This document shows, one piece after another, positions 1,472-30,067 of a stretch of DNA of 64,000 nt. The stretch is from a virus, in IMG/VR virus record IMGVR_UViG_3300003155_000005, positions 1 to 64,000 of that record; one strand, 5' to 3'. The notes under the pieces were generated by a model. It had not been told where the DNA came from, ran no database searches, and saw only the letters and a program-made list of their open reading frames with translations. The translations under genes were made by a program, and so were the position numbers. Within the stretch, counting starts at the first letter, position 1, and the number at the start of each line of letters is the position of its first letter.

Positions 1472-2923
1472 ATGCAAGCAAACAAGTATTTTCAAGTAAA
1501 AGAATTAGTATCATCAAATATCTACAAAGAATATGGAGATGATGCTATAAAATTTTTAGATCCAAAAGCACTTAAAGCTTTAGAGAACGTTAGAGAGATT
1601 TTAGGAGTTCCTCTGATTTGTAATAACTGAGCAGCAGGTGGATCTAGAAATTATAGTGGTTATAGAGAGCCAGGATGTGGAGTTGGAGTTAAAAATAGTT
1701 ACCATTGTATAGATATAAATACTGAAATACTTACAAACCATGGTTGAAAAACTTATAATACAATAGATATCCAAAATGACAAAGTATATAGTTATAATAT
1801 AGATAAGAATGGAATAGAAATAGTGCCAATTCAACAATATTTCTTTCAAAAATATGACGGAGAAATAATTCAAATACAAAATAAGTTAATTGATATTTTT
1901 GTAACAGATCAGCATAGACTTTTAACTAAGGCGAAGAATAATTATAAAGACCGTGAGTTTTATAGATTTGAACTAGCAAAAGATTCATTTGGCAAACGTA
2001 GAGAAATAATGAATGCTGCTAATAACTTAAGTGTTAGTGAAGATTTTGATTTAAATATTTGGCGATTAGCAATGGCAGTTATTGCTGATGGTTCAATTTC
2101 TAAAAAAAATATTAGAAAATATAATAATTTTGTATTTAAGTTGGTTAAAGAAAGAGATATTAATGAATTGGAAAACATTCTATATAATCTTAATCTATCT
2201 TATAGTAAAACTAAAGTTATTAGTTATTATTTATCAAATGGCGATCCTTATTATTGTTGGCAATATATACTTCCAGTAACGAAAGTCACAAAGTCGGTTT
2301 TAGATATAATTGGAAAGAATAAGAAAATACCTAATACTGTATTAGAACTTCCCTCTTATATATTGAAGGAATTATTAATTACATATGCTAAATTTGATGG
2401 AACAATTGATAAACGAACTAATTGTAACTGCATGACCATATACTCTACAGACGAACATAATATCGATATGCTGCAAAAAATGAGTATACTTGCAGGAATG
2501 CGATGTATTAAAAGATCGTTTACAAATCAGAAAGTAATATGTAATAATATTGAAACTACAATTCGTGAAATACATCATTTATATATCCACTTAAATAGGT
2601 CTGAAACTAGAATTAACGAAAAGGATTGATCTAAAAAACAATTTTCTGGATATGTTTGATGTGTTAGTAACCGTAATGAGACTATTATAACTCGAAGAAA
2701 TGGCAAAATCGCAATTATTGGAAATTGCAAAGGACAAGCTTTTGATTTAATATCAAGTAAAATGACAGCTAAAGAGATGAGAGATAAGTTAGAACAAAAT
2801 CAAGATAAACTTATCTATCCAATTCGTGTTGAGAAATGAGAGGGTAACAAAGAAATAGGTTGACTTCATATCGATATTTCTCCTAATACACATGGACAAA
2901 AATTATATTTTTTTAAAGCATAA
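1472..2923 (+). CDS. M15-family zinc peptidase (endolysin-like L-Ala-D-Glu / D-Ala-D-Ala peptidase fold) interrupted by an intein
   Basis: Single frame joins track ORFs 1445..1630 and 1823..2629 through in-frame TGAs and ends at TAA 2921-2923. Spliced exteins give ...NSYH|CKGQAFD..., restoring the S-x-H-x-x-G-x-A-x-D zinc motif. A later GWLHID histidine is also present. ATG 1472 is preferred over TTG 1445. Confidence 0.75.
1706..2725 (+). mobile_element. intein with LAGLIDADG homing endonuclease domain (340 aa)
   Basis: Starts with Cys1 (CIDINTEILT). Block B is VTDQHRLL. LAGLIDADG motifs are LAMAVIADGSI and LLITYAKFDGTI. Ends ...AIIGN followed by +1 Cys. Contains in-frame TGA codons. Confidence 0.75.
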
Positions 2924-9161: not shown

Positions 9162-9902
9162 ATGGAAAATTTCCTTCAATGGATTGAGAAAATTCTGGAG
9201 TTTTTGAAGAACTATGGGTTTTTAAATATTATTAAGTCATGTATTTTAATAATTTTATTTGCATTTACTGTGAACATTGCCTTCAATCCAAAAGAAACTA
9301 TTAAAAACATTATTGAATGGGTTCATGCAATTGAGAAGGAAAAGCATGCTACAAGCGAAGAAATTCGCAGGCATGTTAATCCTGTTATTAATGAATTATT
9401 AGATAATTCTATACGGGATATAGGATGTGATAGGGCTTTTATTATGGAAGGGCACAATGGAAAAGCAAATGATAGCGGATTAGGTTTTTATTACGTAGAT
9501 ATGACTTATGAAAGATGTAGAAAACCCTCATTAGATCAAGCAGTATATTGGCAATACAAAGATATGCCAACCAGTATTTTCCCTTTCTTCAATTATTTGG
9601 ACAAACGCAGATATTTTTATGGGGGTTCAGATGAATTATCCCAAATAGATTCTAAGTTAGCTCAAATGATTAATATCAACGGCACACATTTCTTAGTAGC
9701 TGTTGAAATTCCAGGAAAAAATTCTGCTAATCAATTTATGGGAATACTTGGTTATTCTTTTGAAAATTCCCCCAAACTTACTCAAGAACAAATAAAAGAT
9801 TATATGCTTGAGGTGAGAAGAAGGGTTCAAATACTATTATCGTTAACTTCTTTGAAAGAAGTTGACATCAATCAATTTCGAGAAGCAATATGCCTAAATT
9901 AA
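9162..9902 (+). CDS. hypothetical protein with N-terminal TM segment (246 aa)
   Basis: Complete ATG..TAA ORF. No TGA; its Trp codons are all TGG. Confidence 0.65.
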   Translation: MENFLQWIEKILEFLKNYGFLNIIKSCILIILFAFTVNIAFNPKETIKNIIEWVHAIEKEKHATSEEIRRHVNPVINELLDNSIRDIGCDRAFIMEGHNGKANDSGLGFYYVDMTYERCRKPSLDQAVYWQYKDMPTSIFPFFNYLDKRRYFYGGSDELSQIDSKLAQMININGTHFLVAVEIPGKNSANQFMGILGYSFENSPKLTQEQIKDYMLEVRRRVQILLSLTSLKEVDINQFREAICLN

Positions 9903-11818
9903 AAAATGTTAAGGAAAAATATGTAAATGGCCTTAAAGTAGACAAAGAGACAAAGGATGTAGTATACTCTGATGAAGCTCATGTATATATAGACAAAACA
10001 GATCAACAAAAATATATTTCTGTTACTACTTTAATTGGCAAATATGAGAATCCTTTTGATGTATTTTTTTGGTCTTCCTATAAAACTTGCGAGAAGTTAA
10101 TGTCGGAAGAAACTTTTCATGTACTTAAAGAAACTTTATTAGCTACAAAGAGGTGGACAGATGATATGATTGAAAAGCTTCATCTTGATCCAATTATCTT
10201 TGATAAAACAAGAAAAGAAATACAAAAAGGATATGATGATGAGAGAAATAAATCTTGTGAAAGAGGTACAAAAATACATTCTAATTTTGAAGAGATGTAT
10301 TATACTTCAGAGAAGCAAGATTTAAAAAAGTTTGGTTTAGGAGGAGTTTTTACTTGTAAAAAAGGATATTACGAACTTGATTTAGAAAAAGGAGTATACC
10401 CAGAATTTTTGGTTAGCTTAAAATCTTCCGATGGAATATTACGAGTTGCTGGACAGATAGATTTACTAATTAAAGATGGAAATGACATCTATATTTATGA
10501 TTACAAAGGACTTCCATTAGATACTAAAATCCCTACTAAAACAGGATGGACTACAATTAGAGATATAAAGGAGGGAGAAGAAATATTTGATAAAAATGGA
10601 AACCTTACTAAGGTACTTCATAAATCAGATATTCATTATAATCCTTGCTTTAAAATTACATTTGATAATGGAGAGTCTATAATTGCGGACCATGAACATA
10701 GATGGCTAATATCTTTTAGAAATCCAGATAAAACATTTAGAGAAACTGTATTAACTACAGAAGAGTTGGCAAAATGAATAATTGAAAAGCCAAGAACTTC
10801 ATATAATATCCCAAAAATAAAAAATGCACAGCCTTTAAATCTTCCAGATATAGATTTACCTATAGATCCTTATGTTTTAGGTTGCTGGTTAGGAGATGGC
10901 AGTAAATCTAGTGGGATTATTACTAATATCAATGATAAGATATGGGAAGAAATTCAAAATAGAGGCTATTCTGTGGGAAATAATCTTTCTGGAGAGAATC
11001 ATGCAGAAATGCGAACTGTCTACAATATTAGAGGAATATTAGATGAGCTAGGAATATTACATACTAAGTTTATTCCTGATCTCTATATGAGAGCTTCTTA
11101 CCAACAAAGGTTAGACTTACTACGTGGATTAATGGATACAGATGGTTATTATCATGAATCTAGAAAAAGATTTGTGATGGGAACAACTCAAAAATGGCAA
11201 GCAGAAGATCTGTTTAAATTAGTAAGTACATTAGGTATAAAAGCCACTATTTTTGAAGTAGATAAAAAATGTAATGGAAAAATATTTAAAGGTTGGGATG
11301 TATGCTTTTCAACAAATGGTTTAAATCCATTTTTAGTTAGAAATCAAAATATTGACTTTCCAAAAACTGACAAAAATTCTTTCAGAAATATTATTTCTGT
11401 AGAAAGAGTGGATACTATAGCAACACAGTGTTTAGAAGTAGATAGTCCTTCTCATACGTTTTTGTTTGGGGATTCTATGATAGTTACACATAATACAAAT
11501 AAGGAAATAAAGAAGCGTTCTTACTACGATCAAACTAAATGATCTAATGTAATGATGAAATACCCATTAAATAATATAATGGATTGTAATTATTATCATT
11601 ACACATTACAACTATCTTTATATGCTTATTTGTTACAACAAATTAAACCTGAGCTAAATATCAAGAAATTAACATTAATACATATAGATCATAATGATAA
11701 AATTACAGAATATTCTGTAGATTATCTTAAAAATGATGTAGAAAGAATGTTAAAACACTATAAAAAGCTTTTAAAACAGACGACTATACTTGATAGAGAT
11801 CGTCCTATTATATTTTAA
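9890..11818 (+). CDS. PD-(D/E)XK (RecB/Cas4-like) exonuclease interrupted by an intein
   Basis: Track ORFs 9890, 10973 and 11552 share one frame through TGAs at 10775 and 11540. Exteins carry ERGTKIH, GQIDLLIKDGNDIYIYDYK|TNKE and QLSLYAYLL nuclease motifs. Confidence 0.8.
10508..11494 (+). mobile_element. intein (329 aa) with LAGLIDADG endonuclease domain; class 3-like W-C-T signature, Gly at position 1
   Basis: Begins GLPLDTKIPTKTGW. Block B is GESIIADHEHRW (His B10, Trp B12). LAGLIDADG motifs are LGCWLGDGSKSSG and LRGLMDTDGYYH. Block F is TQCLEVDSPSHTF (Cys F4). Block G is MIVTHN followed by +1 Thr (Thr G5). Confidence 0.7.
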
Positions 11819-11820
11819 AT

Positions 11821-12090
11821 ATGGGAAGTATATTTGATATTATAGATGGACATGTAAATGAGATGTTTAATGCTAATGAGGAGTTATATGAAAAGAGAAT
11901 GAAAGTATGTAAAGAATGTCCATTATATAAAGAAACTCCTGTTGGCCCAATATGTAATCCCAAGCTTTATATAAATAAAGAAGGTGATGTAGCAACATAT
12001 AAAAAAGATGGTTATGTCCGTGGATGTTCTTGTCGTTTATCTGCGAAGACAAGATTAAATCATGGAAAATGTATTATAGGAAAATGGTAA
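11821..12090 (+). CDS. Cys-rich small protein (putative zinc-binding)
   Basis: Complete ORF. CKECP...PICNP...GCSCR...HGKC cysteine pattern. Confidence 0.55.
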   Translation: MGSIFDIIDGHVNEMFNANEELYEKRMKVCKECPLYKETPVGPICNPKLYINKEGDVATYKKDGYVRGCSCRLSAKTRLNHGKCIIGKW

Positions 12091-12587
12091 AAAGTATGAG
12101 CAATTTAATTTTAAATGATCCCACTGGGGCAAGTGGTTACGGTGCACAATTAAGTAAAAATCTTTCTGGACTTAGTTCAACTGAAGTTAAAGAACGAATA
12201 GAAATAGAAAAATTAGCTGCTGCCTCTGCAGAATTAGAAGCAAATAAAGGGTGGAAATCTGCAGAGAATAAAAAAGTTCAGGCAACAGGATATACAGTTA
12301 TATTTACAAAATATAAACGTAATCCTTATCGAAAATATAAGTCAGGGGCAGGACTAATTATGGATGTAGATTCCTTCCATGTAAATGAAGCTGGAGAAAT
12401 GGAACAAGATGAAATGGGAGTTATCTGTTGTCATGTAGTATCTGTTGGACCAGAGTGTAAATATGTTAAGGAAGGTGATGACATTTATATAAGAAATGTT
12501 GGAGCTGCTCCTGTTCCCTTTGACTATAGAGGTTATTGGGCAATTAGTGAACAAAATGTGATATGTAGAATTGTAGACAATGATTAG
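12084..12587 (+). CDS. GroES-like (Cpn10-fold) co-chaperonin candidate with N-terminal extension
   Basis: The C-terminal ~95 aa follow the GroES pattern (ATGYTVIF..SGAGLIM..GVICCHVVSVGPECKYVKEGDDIYI..YWAISEQNVICRI). ATG 12084 overlaps the upstream stop. Assignment is by motif resemblance only. Confidence 0.45.
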   Translation: MVKSMSNLILNDPTGASGYGAQLSKNLSGLSSTEVKERIEIEKLAAASAELEANKGWKSAENKKVQATGYTVIFTKYKRNPYRKYKSGAGLIMDVDSFHVNEAGEMEQDEMGVICCHVVSVGPECKYVKEGDDIYIRNVGAAPVPFDYRGYWAISEQNVICRIVDND

Positions 12588-12813
12588 TGAAATTGAAAAA
12601 ATATTTTATAATCCTGGAGACTTAGTTAGAGTTAGACATCATAAACTAAGTAATATTCCAGTGATGTATGTTGTGGAAAAGGTAACAAGATCCTATAAAC
12701 ACAATGATGAAACAGTGAATTCCTTTAAGGGAATTAAGTGCAGATGGTTTAATGTAAATGGTGATCTTTGTGAAGAAATTTTCTCTTCTAAAGATCTTGA
12801 AAGAGTAAAATAA
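12580..12813 (+). CDS. hypothetical protein (77 aa)
   Basis: Complete ORF, overlapping start/stop with neighbours. Confidence 0.5.
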   Translation: MISEIEKIFYNPGDLVRVRHHKLSNIPVMYVVEKVTRSYKHNDETVNSFKGIKCRWFNVNGDLCEEIFSSKDLERVK

Positions 12814-13091
12814 TGAAGGTATATTTTAATAGACTAGGAAATATAGACCATGTAGATTGTACTTCTGCTGAATTTATTGAACTGCAAGATGGAAATAATC
12901 TTTTGACATGGGTTGATTTAGCTGATATCCCTAAGTGTTTAGGAGAAACCATAGAAAAACGTGTTGAACTGTGGTTAGAACTTAAAAAGAGGGGAATTAT
13001 TGTAGAAAATACTAAAAGACATCATGGACGAAACTCAATTAATGGAATTCATAAAGTGAATTCCAACGCGCATAAAAACATTGCAAAATAA
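12813..13091 (+). CDS. hypothetical protein (92 aa)
   Basis: Complete ORF with ATGA-type coupling to the upstream gene. Confidence 0.5.
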   Translation: MKVYFNRLGNIDHVDCTSAEFIELQDGNNLLTWVDLADIPKCLGETIEKRVELWLELKKRGIIVENTKRHHGRNSINGIHKVNSNAHKNIAK

Positions 13092-13110
13092 ATCTCCAGA
13101 AGAGATCGCA

Positions 13111-13737
13111 ATGACTTTAAATAAGCTTTCTAAAACTCCAGAAGGACAAAAGCAATTAGAAGCACTTATTCAGGAATTTAAATCTGAAAATGCTGCAATT
13201 CAACCAGAGGAAACTGGAATGTTTAAGAAGGGAGGAAAGCTTAACTACTTAGTTACTAAGTTTAAAAATGGAGGAAAGAAAACTATAAATACCCCTAAAG
13301 GTCCAATTCATAGTGATGGAGAAGGAGGATACAAAGACATTGATGGACGGGATGCTGGATATAGAGAAGGTTATTTTAAAGAGAGGGCTGCTCAAAGAGC
13401 CTCTGATAGATTAGCTGAACAAGAATTCAGATCTGATTCAACATATCATGCTTTACCTGGAGGTCCTATCTATACAAGAAGTACATTTTATCCTTTCTCT
13501 ACAGATACTTTAGTATCTAAAAATGGGAAATTTTACAGTAATTCTTTAGGAAGATCTATTAGAAAGTTTGTTACGGGAACTTCTCCATTTGATCAGATTA
13601 ATAGAGCTATTGATAGTATAGCTGGATACAGTACCCCAAGATATAATAATGGTGGTGAGGTTCAAGAGAAAAAACCTTTAAAATGGGAGGAACTAAGAAA
13701 AGCTACTATTATAGATAAATTCAAGAAAGTGAAATAA
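13111..13737 (+). CDS. hypothetical protein carrying K-x-G-G-K motifs
   Basis: ATG 13111 is preferred over TTG 13081. Contains MFKKGGKL, KFKNGGKK and YNNGGEV. Confidence 0.55.
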   Translation: MTLNKLSKTPEGQKQLEALIQEFKSENAAIQPEETGMFKKGGKLNYLVTKFKNGGKKTINTPKGPIHSDGEGGYKDIDGRDAGYREGYFKERAAQRASDRLAEQEFRSDSTYHALPGGPIYTRSTFYPFSTDTLVSKNGKFYSNSLGRSIRKFVTGTSPFDQINRAIDSIAGYSTPRYNNGGEVQEKKPLKWEELRKATIIDKFKKVK

Positions 13738-14315: not shown

Positions 14316-14333
14316 ATCCTTAATAAATAAAGT

Positions 14334-17300
14334 ATGGCTGAACTAAGATCAAAGAAAAAGAAAGACGAATTACGTAAGAGAGTTGACAGACTTCCGACCT
14401 TCACAGAAAAAACTGAGGAAGAGTTAAGGAAGGAGTTGCTTGCTTCAACTATAGATGAAGAAACTGAAGAGTCCCCATATTATTATGAAGATAAAGTAGA
14501 AGTACATAAGAAAAGGACTGAAGGGTTATGAGATGTAATATTAGAAGATGAGATTCATTATTTTGATCCAGAATTGTCTTATGAAATAACAGGATATAGA
14601 CCTATTAATGAGACTGAAGGATTAGATTTTGATCCCACTCCTTTTATAGAAGTTGGGCAGGTATATCAGAGAACTGGAAGATACACTGCACATAAAAAAG
14701 GAGGCAAACCTTATGTGGACTTTTGAAGAGAACAGATAAGGCGTTGTGTTGAAGGTTATACAGTAGGGAAATATAGGGTTACAGGAGATCATTATTTCTT
14801 CTTAAACTTCTATAGAATGGGTATTGTAGATGATAAGAAAAAAGCAGGAGCTGGCTCAGAAGAATCTTTTCCATTTTTCACATCAAAGCAATACGAGTTT
14901 TTTCATTATGTAGAAATGTGCGAATATCTTAAAAAAGATGTAGTAGCATTAAAATCTCGAGCGGTAAACTAACCTGCCGCCTTATATAGTAATATGTAAG
15001 TAAAAATTCCGCAAAATCGGTAGAAGCTACGATAACTAAATATGTGATTTTATTACGATGACAAAACAAGAACAAATTAAATTTATAGAGGATAACTATC
15101 CCGAATATACAAATCATTTTAGCAAACGCTCTATTAGACATGATTTCTTTTCTGAAATTAAAACTGAGTTACAAGCATATTTATTAGGATTTTATGCTGC
15201 TGATGGTAGTATAAATGAAAAACGAAAAACTTTACGCATTCATTTATGTGATGTGGATTCTGATATAGTAAATATGTACAAAACATATATCAGCCAGGAT
15301 GCAAGAACCTTTATTCTACAAGAACATATTACAACTGGAAGAAATGGGATGAAAGTACAAGCACATAAATCATATGGCATTGATATAACCAGTACAAAAT
15401 TATGTGAGTCCCTAGTTAATCTAGGATTTGGATATAATAAAACATATGTGGAGCATAGTTTTCCAAAAATGGACCCCTCTCTTTTTAGGCACTTTATTAG
15501 GGGTTATTTTGATGGGGATGGTTCTATTACTGGAAGCTATCGTAAAGCTCAAGAAAATAGAAAAGAGAGAATGACTATGAATTTTACAATAGATTTTAAA
15601 AAGGCTCAATTAGCATTAGAATTCCAAAAAGAGTTTGCAAGAAGAGACATAAAATCCAGTGTAATATATTTAAAAAGAGATGATATGTATAGATTAACTA
15701 CAGCATCTATTCCCAACATTAAAAAGTTATTTCATTTCTTATATGATGATTGTAATTTTTATGGTAATAGAAAATATAAAAAATTTAGTTATTATGTTAA
15801 TACCGAGGTAAGTCAGTTGATTGCTGACCACCGTAACGCGTAGGAGATGATCGCTAGAAACAGAAATAATTCTCCCAAGAGTGCGGAACATCCATTTGGA
15901 TGAAAATGTACGCTGAACTTATAGGAAACTATAAGAACTATAGGATAAAAAGCCTATAGGATAACAAAAATTGAGGATTCTCAGAAATAGGAGCCTGTTT
16001 AGGAGTTAGACCTTTTATTACTACTAGAAAATTTAGAACAGTTTACACTGCCTATTCTGACACATATGTTGATGCTGTACTAGATAAATGTTGGTACCAG
16101 CTTAACTGATTAAGTAATAATACTGACGGAGGTATGAAACGTGTTCGACAGAAGATCGATAATATTAAACAAAAACGAGCTTCTAAAGTTGATAAAGACG
16201 GAGTAGAATCTGGACGTATGGCAGAAATAGAAGGAATTCCAGCAGATAATCCTAGAAAAGTTCGTGGTGATCGTTGTGATAGGCTGATGTTCGAAGAGTT
16301 TGGTTCTAATCCAGTATCTAGAACATCTTGAACCCAAGGAACTGCCCTTGTTGAAATTGGTGGTGTACGTAGAGGCATTAAGATTGGTTGGGGAACTGGT
16401 AGGGAATTAATTTAATTTATTATATTACAAGTAATTTTTATTAGTCAATGAAAAGAGAAAGTAAACAAACTGTTATAAATATTGCTATTCAAGAGTATTT
16501 GAACATCCCTGAAAGCGATAGAAGCTTAACTCAAATAGGAAGAAAATATGGAATTAAGCGTCAAACATTATCTAAATATTTAAAATTAAGAGGCTATGAA
16601 GTTATTAATTACCAAAATATTCATAGGCTAAATGAAACAATTTTTGATACAATAGATACTGAAGAAAAAGCATACTGATTAGGATTTTTATATGCTGATG
16701 GAAATATTAGTTCTGAAGGATTTAGATTAGAGATTAATTTATCAATAACAGATTTAAATCATATGAAAAAATTAGCTACTTTTTTAAACCTTACAAATGA
16801 TATTAGATTATCGGCAAATGGAGAAATTTGCAGGATTTCTGCAAGAAGTAAGCATTTATGGGAGCAGCTAAATATTAAGGGATGTACTCCTTGTAAAAGT
16901 CTAACTTTAAAATTTCCTAATGCTGCAATTTTTTCAAATTCACAATTAATCTATGATTTTATTCGAGGTTATTGTGATGGTGATGGATGTTTAACTGTCT
17001 ACAAAAAGAATAATTCTGTAGTAACAGAATTAAATTTTGTGGGAACCGAAAATTTTTTACTTGAGGTTGAAAAAAAATTAAATATTAAAGGATATATTAG
17101 GAATAAGAGTTCTATGAAATATATTAATAGAGCCTATTCTTTGAAATATTCTGGAGTTGCAGCAAGAAGGGTTGCAAGATTATTGTATGAAAAAGCTTCA
17201 ATATATTTAGATCGAAAATATAATAAATATAAATTATTCTGCCTCCTAGAAGAGGGATCTTCTAGAAGAAAATCGAGCAAAATCGGTGAAGGCTGAGATG

Positions 17301-18622
17301 CTAATACCGAGATAACTAATTAGATTGCAAAAGGCTAATTAGTATTGTAACGCGTAGATACTGAATAAATATAATGTATCCAAGAGTGTTCGACATCCAG
17401 AACGGATGAAAATGTACGCTGAACTTATGAGAATCAAATCATAAGAACTGCAGATAAAAAACTGCAGGATAACAAATTGGGAGACCAAGGCCCTTCATTA
17501 ACAGGATTATCTGAGATATTTAGTGATCCTAAAGCTAATAATGTCTTACCTTATAAGAACTTCTACTCCTCAGATGGAACTGTTCAATATACAGGATTTT
17601 TTATTCCTGCCTATACATTTATGTTGGGATCTGAATATACAGATCATCGGGGAGTTACAAATACAGAGAAAGCAAAAAAATATTATGAAGAGCAAAGAGC
17701 TGCTAAAAGTGGCAAAAGTCTTCTTGAATATTGTTCAGAATATTGTTTTACTCCAGCTGAAGCCTTATTAAGGCAGGGTGATAATATTTTTGATGCTATT
17801 GCTATTTCAGATAGAATTACCCAAATTAGAATACACAAAATGGGAATTAAACCTAGACGTGTAGCACTTCTTTGGGACAAAAGCGAAGGGGATGAAAGTT
17901 TAAACAAAGTAAAGGTTTATGATAAGGTGGATAGTAATATTCTTATCTATGAAGAGCCCATGTTAGATGATAAAGACCCTTATAAAAATTTATATGTAGC
18001 TGGGATAGACTCTATTGACCAAGGTACAGAAGATTCTGCAACTCAAAAAGATGTATCAGATTTTTGTATTGTAATAAAAAGAAGAGCCTATGGTTTAAAA
18101 GAGCCTAAGTATGTAGCTGTATATAAAGAAAGACCAAGAGATATTAGATTGGCGTATGACAATGCAATGAAATTATTAACTTGATATAATTGCAAAGCAT
18201 TACTGGAACACACCAAAATTAGTATCTTAACCTACTTTAAAAGCAAGAAAAAAGATAATCTTTTTATGAAACGTCCAAAATCTAGTCTTAGTGATATTAA
18301 GAGAGGTAATTCACAAATGATTGGAGTCCCTGCTACAGAAACTATTATAAAGCATGGATTGGAACTTATTAATACTTATATAAATGATTATTGTTATACA
18401 ATAGATTCTGATATGATTCTGGAACAATTATTAAATTATTCTTATGAAAATAAAAGAAAATATGATATTGTTGCAGCTATGAGTATGGCAGAAATCGCTG
18501 ATGAAGAGTTAATGGGATTTAATCCAAAACCTGCGCATAGTGTAGAAAAAGAATGGAAAGATTTTGGATGATTTACTAATTCAAAAGGTTATAAACAGTT
18601 TGGAGTTATTGGTGATGAATAA
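14334..18622 (+). CDS. terL: terminase large subunit, three exons: 14334..14965, 15974..16400, 17480..18622 (733 aa after splicing)
   Basis: Spliced product reads ...FPFFTSKQYEFFHYVEMCEYLKKDVVALKSRAV|GFSEIGACLG...DRLMFEEFG...IGWGTG|GDQGPSLTGL...YVAGIDSIDQG.... Exon lengths 632+427+1143 sum to 2202 nt (3 x 734). In-frame TGAs lie in exons 1-3. Ends at TAA 18620-18622. Confidence 0.85.
14966..15973 (+). mobile_element. group I intron 1 in terL (1008 nt)
   Basis: The 5' exon ends in U. GCGGU can pair with the intron's GCCGC (14975..14979) as a P1 helix with a U-G wobble. The intron ends ...AAAAATTG (terminal G). The 3' ~130 nt are closely similar to intron 2. Confidence 0.7.
15058..15843 (+). 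CDS. LAGLIDADG homing endonuclease (intron 1 encoded)
   Basis: Two motifs, LLGFYAADGSI and IRGYFDGDGSI. The ORF runs into the conserved intron core. Confidence 0.85.
   Translation: MTKQEQIKFIEDNYPEYTNHFSKRSIRHDFFSEIKTELQAYLLGFYAADGSINEKRKTLRIHLCDVDSDIVNMYKTYISQDARTFILQEHITTGRNGMKVQAHKSYGIDITSTKLCESLVNLGFGYNKTYVEHSFPKMDPSLFRHFIRGYFDGDGSITGSYRKAQENRKERMTMNFTIDFKKAQLALEFQKEFARRDIKSSVIYLKRDDMYRLTTASIPNIKKLFHFLYDDCNFYGNRKYKKFSYYVNTEVSQLIADHRNA
16401..17479 (+). mobile_element. group I intron 2 in terL (1079 nt)
   Basis: Splits W-G-T-G|G-D. The 5' exon ends in U and the intron ends ...ACAAATTG. Shares AATACCGAG, GTAACGCGTAG, CCAAGAGTG, GGATGAAAATGTACGCTGAACTTA and a hairpin plus GATAACAAA with intron 1. 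Confidence 0.7.
16448..17323 (+). CDS. LAGLIDADG homing endonuclease with N-terminal HTH (intron 2 encoded)
   Basis: Track ORFs 16448 and 16763 are joined by in-frame TGA 16676. Motifs are LGFLYADGNI and IRGYCDGDGCL. Read through TGA 17294 to TAG 17321-17323. Confidence 0.8.
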
Positions 18623-21879: not shown

Positions 21880-22073
21880 TACTTTATATCGGCTGTTTTC
21901 TAAGGAATTAGTAAATTTGAATATAGGTTACAACTTTAATTCTAACACTTTGTGCACAATGAATGAGATAGTAAATGCAATTGATTACATTAAGCATGGT
22001 TGTCCTCATAGTGAGGAAGTGATTAAACTTATACAGTACTATGAAGAACTGTAATAATTAAAAACTATTAAGC

Positions 22074-23819
22074 ATGAAAAGAAATAATATACTTCCAGAT
22101 GTTGATTTGCAAACTTCTCGTGAATGCTATGGAGCAACTAATTCCAGAGATTTTTATAAAGGAAAATCTTTCAATTTTGCTAAAGCTTGAGCTCCTGGAG
22201 TTGCCTATTATAACAGTAGCTACATTCAAGATTTTGTAGCTTATAATGGCGCTCTTTTAGCTTGTCATAGAAGCCATGTCTCAAACAATGATCTGGAACC
22301 TGTATTACTTTATACGGATCTTGAACATCCAGAAATACCTACAGGTGTAGACTCTCCTCTTTGGGAATTTGTATTTGCAGGTACTCCAGGTGCAGCTGGG
22401 GATGAAGGTAAACCTGGCCAGGTGTACGTACCTAAATACAATGAGTCTACAGGATATGTTACTTGAACTTTAGAATCAGGTGCTTCTCAAATTTCTCCAA
22501 TGTATATCAAGGGTGATAAAGGAGAAAAAGGTGATCCTGGTGCAACAGGATCAAAAGGAGAAAAAGGTGATCCTGGTTCTAGAGGAGAAAGAGGACCTCA
22601 AGGAGAACAAGGACTTAGAGGACTTCAAGGGGAGCAAGGACCCAGAGGACTTCAAGGTATTCAGGGAGAAAAAGGAAATAAAGGTGATAAGGGAGATCGA
22701 GGTGATAGAGGACCTGCTGGAACTGCGGCAACTATCAGAGTAGATTCTGTTATTACTGGAGATCCTGGTTCTCAAGCTTCTATCGTAAATGTCGGAACCG
22801 CTTCTGAAGCTGCTTTCAGATTTACTATTCCAAGAGGCCAACAAGGAGTTCAAGGTATTCAGGGAGAAAAAGGAGACAAAGGAGATAAAGGAGAACAAGG
22901 TCCTAAAGGTAAACAATTAAAGTTGTATCGAGACTTTACTGATGATACAATTAAATGAGGATATGATGGGGAACTGCCTAGTCAATGGACAGTTCTTTGT
23001 TATATGGACTATCTACGAGGAGTCAGTATTGATGATGTTGATATTACCGACGATGCTCATCTTAAAGTGACATTATCTTCTGGACATTATACATGAACCC
23101 CAGATGAAGATGGAAACCCAATTAAAGATGAAAATGGAAATATTATATATGATCGCTGAATCCCATCAACTATAATTACTAAGGGCAAAGCAGCAGCTAC
23201 ACTTACTGCTGGTAAAGTAGAAATGCTACGCCCAGGAGAAGATCCTAAAATTGAAAATGTGGGTACAATCAAAGATCCTATTTGAGATTTTTATATACCC
23301 AGAGGATTTACTGGGAATCATGCTGTACATGTTGGCCCAGAAGATCCTGTTACTTTTAGGAACTCCCATTTAGATGATGCTGACATTCAAGAAGCCTATA
23401 AGAATGCAGAGCAAATGATTTGGGTTGATACCAAAGATAAAGCAGAATTTGATCATTTAAATGCTGTATATCATGCATATAAAGAAGCTGGAGGAACTGC
23501 TTTAGATCAATCTAAGTTTGCTGAGGCTTTTGCTAATTTAACTAATGCTTCTGGATTCTCTATACAGATTGTTGAGAGCTTTGAAGCACTTGGGGAACCT
23601 ACAAAAGATAAACAAAACATAATTTGGTTAGTTCCTGCTTCTCAAACTGAAGTTAATAATCTATATGATGAATATATAGTGGTTAAATCTTCAAATACTA
23701 TGCTTGATACCTATTTTTGGGAAAAATGAGGTAATGGCACTATAACTGTAGATTTATCTAACTACTATACCAAAGCTGAAGTAGATACTATTATGATGTG
23801 AAATGATGTTACTAATTAA
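22074..23819 (+). CDS. collagen-like repeat tail fibre protein (581 aa)
   Basis: ATG 22074. Same frame as track ORFs 22500 and 23415 through about 8 in-frame TGAs. G-X-Y runs lie at ~22512..22719 and ~22833..22911. C-terminal LSNYYTKAEVD motif is shared with the other fibres. Confidence 0.7.
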
Positions 23820-27804: not shown

Positions 27805-27838
27805 GAGGAGGTGGGAGAAATCCCATCTCCTTATTTTT
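27805..27838 (+). terminator. rho-independent terminator
   Basis: Stem GGAGGTGGGA / TCCCATCTCC with one G-T pair, followed by TTATTTTT. Confidence 0.6.
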
Positions 27839-27859
27839 AATTTTTTAAATAAGGTTAAA

Positions 27860-30067
27860 ATGGCAAAAATTACAAATAGATTCGTTCATTTTAAGACGAA
27901 AGCCAGTTTCACTTCACGATTGGAAGCTGGTGATATCCAGGAATCAAGTGTTGTGTTCATCCAGGATGCAAATGAAATTTGGACACACGGAACATATTAT
28001 AAATGTAATATTAGTAGAGCTGAAGTTGAAGCTTTAATAATTTCTAAAGGTTATATTACTGAAGCAGATATTCCTTCATTAACAGGAGGGGCGGCTGCAA
28101 CTTCAGGTCAATATGTATCAGGAGTTACAGTATCAGGACATACTGTAACTGTCACTAAGGCTGCTTTACCTAGTGCGGCCACAGTTGCTCCTAAAGCATC
28201 TGGAACAGCGGACGTTGGTACCTCAACTAAATATGCAAGAGAAGATCACGTTCATCCTTCACAAACTACAATAAGTGGAAATGCAGGAACTGCAACAAAA
28301 TTAGCTACACCAAGAGTTATAGCAATAGCTGGAGCAGTATCTGGTAGTGCTACTTTTGATGGTTCTGACAATGTATCTATTAATAGTACATTAAATAATT
28401 TTGATGCTTCAAAGATTACTTCTGGCACTCTTAGTGCTGATAGACTTCCAGAAATTCCCATTTCTAAAATTCCTGCAGCTGCATTAGAGAGATTATATGT
28501 AGTAGAATCTGAATCCGCTGCAGTTGCTTTGAAGATACAAGAAGGTGATGTAGTTCAAATTGGCTCAGGAGGACCTATGTACTTCTGTATATCAGAATCT
28601 GCATCTACTTTTGCAACTAAATTTAAAGTATTTACAGCTGGAGCTGCAACAAGTGTACCCTGGTCTGGTGTAACTGGAGCACCTACAAAATTAAGTCAGT
28701 TTACTAATGACTCTGGTTTTATAACAAGTGTACCTGCTCAGACATGGGATAGTATTACAGGAAAACCTTCTACCTTTACTCCAAGCGCGCATACTCAAGC
28801 ATATACAACATTAACTGGTTCAACAACAACTGCAAATCAGGCTATTGTATCTAGTGGTACAGCTAATGGTTGAACATTGAAAACTCTTGGCAGTCTTGCT
28901 TTTAGTAGTGCAACAATACCTACAAAGACTTCACAATTAACTAATGATAGTGGATTTTTAACATCTGTGCCTGCGCAATCTTGGTCTTCAATTACAGGTA
29001 AACCTACTACATTAGATGGATATGGAATAACAGATGCTATTAAAAATACTACAACAGCTACAGCTACTACATTAGCAGCTGGAGCATCAGCAACTGCTGT
29101 TTATGACAAGGCTACTAATAAATTTACTTTTGGTATTCCAAAAGGAGCAACTGGTGCAACAGGAAGTACTGGTGCACAAGGTCCTAAAGGAGACAAAGGC
29201 GATACAGGGGCCACTGGAGCAACGGGTCCTAAAGGTGATACAGGAGCAAAAGGAGCAGATGGTATTACTCCAACTATTGGAACTAATGGTAACTGGTATT
29301 TAGGATCTACTGATACTGGAAAACCTTCTCGTGGTGCAACAGGTGCTACTGGAGCTAAAGGAGATAAAGGTGATACTGGATCTCAAGGCCCAACTGGACC
29401 TACTGGTCCTGCAGGAGCAGCAGCTGGATTTGGTACACCTACCGTAGATAATTCTGCAGCTGGAAATGTTGGAACTCCAAGTGTAACTGTTACAGCTTCA
29501 GGAGCTAATACTAGTAAAGTATTTAACTTTAAATTTAGTAACTTAAAAGGAGCTACGGGTGCGCAAGGACCGAAAGGTGATAAAGGAGACAAGGGTGATA
29601 CTGGAGCAACGGGTCCTGCTGGAACTTATACAGCTGGTTCAGGAATATCAATTAGTGGTAATACTATTTCTGCAGATATTCCAGTTGCATTACCTAATCC
29701 TTATGCGTTAACAATTAATGGACAGTCATATACTGGTTCTTCTTCAGTATCTATAAATACTGAATTAGATCCTACTATATTATCGTCTGCTCTTATAGAT
29801 GCTGGCAATAGTTATTCATTCTCGGCCAGTAATAAACAAACTTTACGTCTTAGAAATTTTTCAGCTAACAACAGTACCGCAATATTATATAGTATGGCAA
29901 CTTATGACCATACATTTACAGTCTATTCTGGAGCTAGTATTCCTATCTATGAACAGCAATTAGGTAGCTATTCAGCAGAAAGTATTATAAAATATACTAT
30001 TATTTATCATCCTTATGCAAAATCTACAGGAGCCTTCTTTATTGAAAAGACTGTTCTAAATCCTTAG
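27860..30067 (+). CDS. collagen-like repeat tail fibre protein (735 aa)
   Basis: Track ORFs 27860 and 28877 are joined through TGA 28871 (TANG-W-TLKTLG). Three G-X-Y blocks lie at ~29138..29267, ~29330..29429 and ~29546..29621. Contains an internal duplicated TNDSGF(I/L)TSVPAQ(T/S)W module. Confidence 0.75.

Follow-up and report, generated by a model that had tools for sequence, protein, structure and literature searches.

The subject of this study is a nuclease gene interrupted by an intein, carried on a stretch of viral DNA of 64,000 nucleotides (nt) that corresponds to positions 1 to 64,000 of the IMG/VR virus record IMGVR_UViG_3300003155_000005. This whole stretch is referred to below as the window. 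The gene lies on the plus strand at 9890-11818, closes with a TAA stop codon at 11816-11818, and its translation forms a single frame of 642 sense codons when TGA is taken as tryptophan (Trp). Three parts follow one another in this frame, all on the plus strand. The N-extein of 206 amino acids (aa; 9890-10507) carries motif I (ERGTKIH), motif II (GQIDLL) and motif III (IYDYK) up to its lysine, Lys-1, encoded by AAA at 10505-10507. The insert of 329 aa (10508-11494) begins with GLPLDT, its first codon being GGA for Gly1 (10508-10510), and ends with IVTHN, the last three residues of which are Thr327-His328-Asn329. The C-extein of 107 aa plus the stop (11495-11818) starts from Thr+1 (TNKEI...) and holds the QxxxY motif (LQLSLYAY). 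We conclude that the insert is very probably a full-length class 3 intein, in which a HINT splicing domain is split by a LAGLIDADG homing endonuclease, and that it sits at motif III (D-Y-K/T; a slash marks the junction here and below) of a RecB/Cas4-like PD-(D/E)XK exonuclease in a low-GC phage of ~172 kb that reads TGA as Trp.

The limits of the intein are independent of how its motifs are read. A search with the predicted spliced protein brought up numerous proteins with a length of exactly 313 aa and 93-98% identity, on contigs of up to ~177 kb. The intein-less alleles P0121 and P0137 (98% and 93% aa identity) stand in the same gene order as in the window, with a 246-aa gene, the nuclease, and then genes of 89, 163/165, 77 and 92 aa. 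At the DNA level, the intein-less alleles align base for base and without gaps to the window gene from which 10508-11494 has been removed (91-95% identity), reading ...GATTATAAA/ACAAATAAG... across the junction. The same site reads ...ATTTATGATTATAAA/ACAAATAAGGAAATA... in the intein-less allele L014, and the protein alleles read ...IYIYDYK/TNKEIKK... there. Because these alleles are aligned at the junction, the intein extends from Gly1 to Asn329 with Thr as its +1 residue, and both boundaries are fixed. An initial annotation of this DNA had placed a 329-aa insert at 10508-11494, splitting IYDYK/TNKE, with Gly at position 1; every codon that it named lies where it was said to lie, and the position of the Gly is the one set by the intein-less alleles.

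The interrupted nuclease and the decoding of TGA

That the host protein is a PD-(D/E)XK nuclease, as first proposed, is borne out by several searches. The Pfam family PDDEXK_1 matches the precursor at 1.5e-4 and the spliced protein at 7.9e-8, with the match then crossing the junction, and the spliced product matches PHROG 298 'exonuclease' at 4e-28. In an alignment of 42 intein-less sequences, residues G126, H130, G188, Q189, D191, D204, K206, Q245 and Y249 are invariant. These include the residues expected of a RecB-like PD-(D/E)XK nuclease, namely D191 of motif II, D204-Y-K206 of motif III, and Q245...Y249 of the QxxxY motif. A search of the PDB sequences with an extein profile gave only noise (E of at least 0.2), and a comparison of folds was therefore needed to place the extein. 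An AlphaFold2 model of the intein-less allele P0121 has a mean predicted local distance difference test (pLDDT) score of 91, and its best Foldseek matches are Cas4 SSO0001, the putative exonuclease 3l0a, ACE1, MGME1, EXO5, AddAB and RecE. The residues of motifs II and III are carried by strands 185-196 and 199-206 of the model, which places the intein at the end of the strand bearing D-Y-K, directly after the predicted catalytic Lys. Cas4 proper has a cluster of iron and sulfur (Fe-S) held by four cysteines, one N-terminal and three C-terminal. In the 42 sequences C123 is the one invariant cysteine and C237 comes near to invariance, and the 313-aa sequence holds no C-terminal trio of the CxxC type. 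Since the four-cysteine cluster is absent, 'Cas4-like' names a fold here and not a family.

The reading frame of the precursor contains two TGA codons, one in the intein (10775-10777, intein codon 90) and one in the C-extein (11540-11542). The first had already been pointed out in the initial annotation, which took the phage to be recoded, and is confirmed; the second was not mentioned there. A product of the same 642 aa appears among public gene calls (L010, L012), while pipelines that use the standard code break the gene into three fragments of 295, 189 and 88 aa (L011, L013), so that the present finding also provides a corrected annotation. When TGA is taken as sense, the plus strand of the window becomes a near-continuous series of long open reading frames (ORFs); three of them, of 1114, 1495 and 1435 aa, contain 14, 10 and 6 TGA codons, respectively.

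The meaning of the codon can be read from three comparisons. The codon for Trp61 is TGG in the window and TGA in the intein-less allele L014. At intein codon 90, the two nearest relatives have Trp, encoded by TGG in L024 and given as W in protein P0001; an alignment of 82 sequences, described below, is uninformative on this point, as the column is variable and mostly Tyr. Finally, a related intein that is 80% identical in protein (L024, positions 1362-2348 of contig CASEWH010000063.1) uses TGA at residues 14, 66 and 127, all three of which are invariant or near-invariant Trp positions. Residue 66 is the Trp of block B position 12 (B:12), and the standard code would thus truncate the L024 precursor before block B is complete. 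On these three grounds TGA means Trp, and it is recoded across the whole window. The clade as a whole provides clean evidence for this reassignment, given that a relative encodes an invariant Trp of its intein by TGA. No tRNA genes were found in the 64,000-nt window, and any suppressor tRNA must consequently be elsewhere in the ~172-kb genome. A scan of the window against Rfam gave no matches.

Genes for portal, capsid, terminase and lysin proteins are also present in the window. The capsid protein recurs on a pair of independent contigs, each 172,383 bp long, as well as in assemblies from chicken gut and elsewhere, and the setting is a TGA=Trp phage of ~172 kb and 30% GC from chicken and other gut samples. 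No close isolate phage was found; in the phage collection, the only related entries are human faecal contigs that carry no annotation. For this reason, and because portal, capsid and terminase fall into other PHROG families, a crAss-like identity was considered and rejected. For the host of the phage there are weak hints only. Three related loci in the genome collection all belong to metagenome-assembled genomes (MAGs), labelled 'uncultured bacterium', Erysipelotrichaceae and Ca. Coprovivens, and the latter two are pointers, at the level of binning, to Bacillota. The initial annotation had spoken of a Bacteroidota phage, for which no support was found.

Splicing class and the evidence for activity

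Class 3 inteins are defined in sequence by a set of residues (PMC2807308; PMC3196547), and both the class and its mechanism have been described (PMC2807308; PMC7664689). The first of these features is the lack of a Ser, Thr or Cys nucleophile at position 1, where the insert has Gly1. The second is a Trp at B:12, two residues past the His of block B. Block B (GESIIADHEHRWLI; 10670-10711) contains Asp61 (B:7), His64 (B:10; CAT at 10697-10699) and Trp66 (B:12; TGG at 10703-10705). The third is a Cys at block F position 4 (F:4), and here Cys308 (TGT at 11429-11431) is predicted to be the nucleophile that initiates splicing and to form the first branch point. The last is a Thr at block G position 5 (G:5), followed by His-Asn and by Ser, Thr or Cys at +1. 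The end of block G reads ACA-CAT-AAT (11486-11494) for Thr327 (G:5), His328 (G:6) and Asn329 (G:7), and Thr+1 is encoded by ACA at 11495-11497. All of the sequence features that define class 3 are, as judged from alignment, present in the insert.

The block positions come from comparison with characterised inteins. In a phmmer search of all PDB chains, the best matches of the insert are the class 3 inteins MchDnaB1 of Mycobacterium chimaera (6rix/6riy) and MsmDnaBi1 of M. smegmatis (6bs8), with E values of 9e-18 to 4e-17. The alignments span both halves of the splicing domain, and the motifs ADxxHxW, xxCxEVD and xTHN are in register with the class 3 inteins of the PDB, in which the block F Cys has been numbered Cys124 (MchDnaB1) and Cys118 (MsmDnaB-1). 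A tblastn search with the intein found matches in 845 phage records, and 373 metagenomic proteins match it at E <= 1e-10. With an E value of 9e-18 to crystallised class 3 inteins and this many relatives in phage records and metagenomes, the insert is not a product of chance.

A second alignment joined the window intein with the intein of mycobacteriophage Bethlehem, three inteins of actinophage exonucleases and one intein of a human-gut phage. The columns of His B:10, Trp B:12, Cys F:4, Thr G:5, His, Asn and Thr+1 are all invariant, the window contributing H64, W66, C308, T327, H328, N329 and T+1. H64 and W66 stand over H65 and W67 of Bethlehem, C308 over C320, and the spacing from F:4 to G:5 is 19 residues in both inteins (320 to 339 in Bethlehem). 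The residue numbers of the Bethlehem intein (P1, S62, H65, W67, C320, T339, H340, N341) were recovered from its genome and match those published by Tori et al. 2010 (PMC2807308). Bethlehem gp61, annotated as a DnaB-like helicase, was tried as the host protein and holds no intein; the published one lies instead within the terminase large subunit, gp10. The triplet of Trp, Cys and Thr (W-C-T) at B:12, F:4 and G:5 was the core of the initial annotation, which staked its class 3 reading on these positions. Both the Bethlehem intein and the PDB inteins put all three residues on the diagnostic block positions.

The same residues are fixed among metagenomic homologues. In a set of 82 sequences, made up of the window protein and 81 full-length metagenomic homologues, D-x-K/Gly1, Asp B:7, His B:10, Trp B:12, Cys F:4 and Thr-His-Asn are each found in 82/82, with position +1 occupied by Thr in 81 sequences and by Ser in the remaining one. 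The Gly at position 1 had been singled out at first as an oddity. This view does not hold, as Gly1 is strict in the set and is found also in Frankenweenie gp79 and Traft412 gp72.

The mechanism proposed here is taken by analogy from work on Bethlehem, MsmDnaBi1 and MchDnaB1, and a branched route through a block F thioester has been demonstrated in homologues of the window intein (PMC2807308; PMC5222942). Translation of the precursor would take place only in a setting that reads UGA as Trp. Cys308, helped by His64 and positioned by Trp66 and Thr327, would then attack the bond between Lys206 and Gly1 to form a branched intermediate with a block F thioester. Cyclisation of Asn329 would release the intein, and an O-to-N acyl shift would restore D-Y-K-T and give the active nuclease of 313 aa. 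A different first step can be imagined in which Thr+1 attacks the N-terminal scissile bond directly, as in class 2 (KlbA-like) inteins, and Cys308 is only structural. The window intein does share with class 2 the lack of a nucleophile at position 1 and the retention of a hydroxyl nucleophile at +1, and which atom attacks first cannot be read from sequence alone. Class 2 inteins are, however, without the W-C-T triplet (PMC2807308), which is invariant here in 82/82, and the closest solved structures are those of class 3 inteins. Moreover, mutation of Cys F:4, His B:10 or Trp B:12 in the Bethlehem intein blocks all N-terminal cleavage (PMC2807308). We therefore regard a class 2 route as highly improbable and retain the class 3 route through Cys308.

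A further question is whether the element is a decayed intein that does not splice, in a copy of the nuclease gene that is dead. A homologous element with Gly1, Arsp-FB24 Arth_1007, is a pseudogene (PMC3196547), and the window gene contains two TGA codons, which the standard code reads as stops. Against this, TGA is sense throughout the genome, there are no frameshifts, and the catalytic residues are all intact (H64, W66, C308, T327, H328, N329, T+1). The extein keeps all of the nuclease motifs and is 93-98% identical to intein-less alleles, and the intein-bearing allele recurs in several samples. Between the window intein and that of L024 (80% identical), the ratio of non-synonymous to synonymous substitutions (dN/dS) has an overall value of 0.085, with 0.10 for the endonuclease part and ~0.05 for the splicing parts; as dS is saturated (~1.5), these values are rough. 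Purifying selection acts on both the splicing and the endonuclease domains, and an overall ratio of ~0.09 counts against decay, which we consider very unlikely.

Several points nevertheless weigh against an active class 3 intein and should be taken together. The Pfam family Intein_splicing matches the insert at 13.8 bits, under its cut-off of 35.8, and the block assignment for this reason rests on the alignments to characterised inteins. Position B:7 is Asp in the window intein and Ser62 in Bethlehem. The saturation of dS at about 1.5 makes the estimate of selection rough, and the mechanism of splicing is one that would be carried over from homologues 27-45% identical. To our knowledge, no class 3 intein with Gly1 is known to splice. 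The one Gly1 intein tested in the literature consulted, that of Arsp-FB24, has a W-D-T triplet and was inactive (PMC3196547).

Homing, inheritance and other genes of the window

The endonuclease of the intein belongs to the two-motif LAGLIDADG type. Pfam LAGLIDADG_3 matches the insert at 5.2e-7 over intein residues 201-254, and two motifs are found in one chain, in agreement with the initial annotation, each with its terminal Asp intact. Motif 1, LGCWLGDGS (10877-10903, plus strand), holds the putative catalytic Asp130, and motif 2, LRGLMDTDG (11120-11146, plus strand), the putative catalytic Asp212. Each Asp is kept in 78/82 sequences, and the neighbouring G125, D210 and G213 in 82/82. Such an enzyme would cut intein-less alleles across ...TATGATTATAAA/ACAAATAAGGAA..., and during co-infection repair from the intein-bearing copy would then spread the element.

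The signs of homing are indirect, and consist of presence/absence polymorphism among near-identical phages, a recombination breakpoint at the insertion site, and an intein that is more conserved than its extein. The intein is present in four near-identical strains and absent from alleles that are 91-95% identical in DNA. In all 81 homologues the identity of the intein to that of the window exceeds that of the extein (81/81; mean 47% versus 23%), the figures for P0001 being 80% versus 47%. This favours transfer of the intein between diverged nuclease genes. In addition, the window allele is a mosaic of two types. Upstream of the junction it is of the L018 type (96-99% identity, versus ~90% to L014); the L014 type (97-100%, versus 70-90% to L018) takes over ~20-40 nt short of the junction and extends 1.7 kb past it, after which the allele returns to the L018 type. 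The comparison with L014 and L018 concerns about 10470-13200 of the window. A breakpoint at the insertion site would fit co-conversion during homing and recombinational loss of the intein alike.

Other data suggest a long residence. Between L024 and the window, the intein (77% nt identity) and the exteins (76-78%) have diverged equally, as expected for co-inheritance. Third-position GC is 0.16 in the intein and 0.18 in the host gene, and because the two are equal in this respect the intein did not come in recently from GC-rich DNA. These observations could be taken to mean that splicing is active and the endonuclease no longer homes, so that the element is inherited only vertically and its presence or absence stems from recombinational losses. 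The divergence of L024, a third-position GC expected of a long-term resident of AT-rich genomes, and the presence of the intein in all four near-identical strains speak for this account. It does not easily explain the retention of both catalytic Asp and the dN/dS of 0.10 in the endonuclease, the higher conservation of the intein in all 81 homologues (P0001 among them), or the coincidence of the mosaic breakpoint with the insertion site, and we judge it rather unlikely. The signals on gain versus loss appear mixed in direction, with co-divergence in L024 on one side and, on the other, P0001, where similarity is far higher in the intein than in the extein.

Intein-bearing and intein-less alleles are thus matched here, with a breakpoint at the homing site, and could be used for measuring homing. 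More speculatively, this clade of gut phages may be a natural population in which the homing of a class 3 intein is in progress, with the breakpoint and the 1.7-kb tract as the pattern left by co-conversion. Maturation of the nuclease might be tied to a switch of genetic code during infection through TGA read-through, on which the precursor and, in relatives, the signature Trp at B:12 depend, and the strict Gly1 might be a mechanistic requirement of the lineage. We put this combined proposal forward as a tentative one and think it more likely to be wrong than right.

The window holds further genes of interest. A second intein candidate is seen at 1706-2725 within an ORF (1472-2923, plus strand) for a lysin of the Peptidase_M15 type, with junctions ...KNSYH/CIDINTEILT...KIAIIGN/CKGQAFD.... 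It is 340 aa long, and its ORF has six in-frame TGA codons. With Cys1 and Cys+1, it looks like a class 1 intein. The spliced lysin product of 143 aa matches Pfam Peptidase_M15_3 at 2.6e-5 across the junction, and the unspliced protein has no Pfam match. The terminase large subunit (14331-18622, plus strand) is apparently in three coding pieces (14331-14972, 15960-16415 and 17375-18622), and the gaps between them hold two free-standing ORFs for LAGLIDADG endonucleases (15040-15843 and 16445-17323). This arrangement of pieces separated by endonuclease ORFs suggests that the terminase gene is interrupted by two group I introns; Rfam found no intron at the locus at its gathering threshold. The stretches 15921-15968 and 17279-17365 are 84-96% identical to phages of Clostridium and Clostridioides and to the human faecal phage contig MT835492. 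Two large structural proteins with collagen-like Gly-X-Y repeats (GDKGDKG...; 22062-23819 and 27806-30067, plus strand) are probably tail fibres.

Comparison with known class 3 inteins

Inteins of this kind have been met before in actinobacteriophages. Kelley et al. 2016 found that Cas4/RecB-like exonucleases encoded by cluster C1 mycobacteriophages share one insertion point within the PD-(D/E)XK motif, with 40 inteins in all, and classed these among class 3 (PMC5050341). In a 2025 preprint, 287 of 784 actinobacteriophage inteins were assigned to class 3 and 138 of the inteins were in Cas4 exonucleases, with the insertion in Mycobacterium phage ScoobyDoobyDoo at motif III, EFK/T (bioRxiv 10.1101/2025.01.02.630785). 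The statement in the initial annotation that class 3 inteins are rare is not compatible with these figures. Full-length tblastn matches of the window intein include Streptomyces phage Frankenweenie gp79 (44.5%), Mycobacterium phage Traft412 gp72 (36%) and Catera gp206 (32%), the junctions of which read VDWK/G...THN/T, VDYK/G...THN/T and VELK/S...THN/T, respectively. As in the window, the inteins of Catera, ScoobyDoobyDoo, Traft412 and Frankenweenie are inserted directly after the motif III Lys and before a Thr. The actinophage exonuclease inteins have the same architecture, a length of ~330 aa and the W-C-T triplet, with 32-45% identity over the full length. Gly1 is shared with Frankenweenie gp79 and Traft412 gp72, whereas that of Catera has Ser at position 1. 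Between the exteins and the Traft412 Cas4 exonuclease there is only a remote similarity (hhalign E = 4.6e-4), DYKT and QLSLYAY of the window pairing with DYKT and QLAVYAL. The phages themselves are unrelated; in contrast to the high-GC actinophages, the phage of the window is of ~30% GC and ~172 kb, comes from gut metagenomes, and uses TGA for Trp.

The Bethlehem 'DnaB' intein, the founding member of class 3, is 27% identical over its full length and likewise has a LAGLIDADG endonuclease, the diagnostic columns and the 19-residue spacing between F:4 and G:5. It differs in its host protein and insertion site, which are those of the terminase ATPase of gp10, in Pro1 in place of Gly1, and in Ser in place of Asp at B:7. 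The Bethlehem intein has been shown to splice, and its T+1A mutant is cleaved at both junctions; the window intein is known here from its sequence. With MchDnaB1 and MsmDnaBi1, both halves of the HINT domain can be aligned, including xLxLxTPxPTxxGWTT, ADxxHxW, CxEVDxPxH and xTHN. Unlike the window intein, these two are mini-inteins that have no endonuclease, reside in bacterial DnaB, and have Ala1 and a +1 Ser.

No description of a class 3 intein in a TGA-recoded gut phage was found in the literature searched. The class 3 intein of Cas4/RecB exonucleases occurs outside actinobacteriophages as well. Gut phages rich in AT carry it widely, as seen in the 373 metagenomic proteins (E <= 1e-10), and it persists in genomes in which TGA has been reassigned. 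The understanding of how class 3 inteins work is unchanged by this finding. The type of intein, its architecture, its insertion site and its Gly1 all have precedents among the systems compared above, and it is the genomic and ecological setting that is new.

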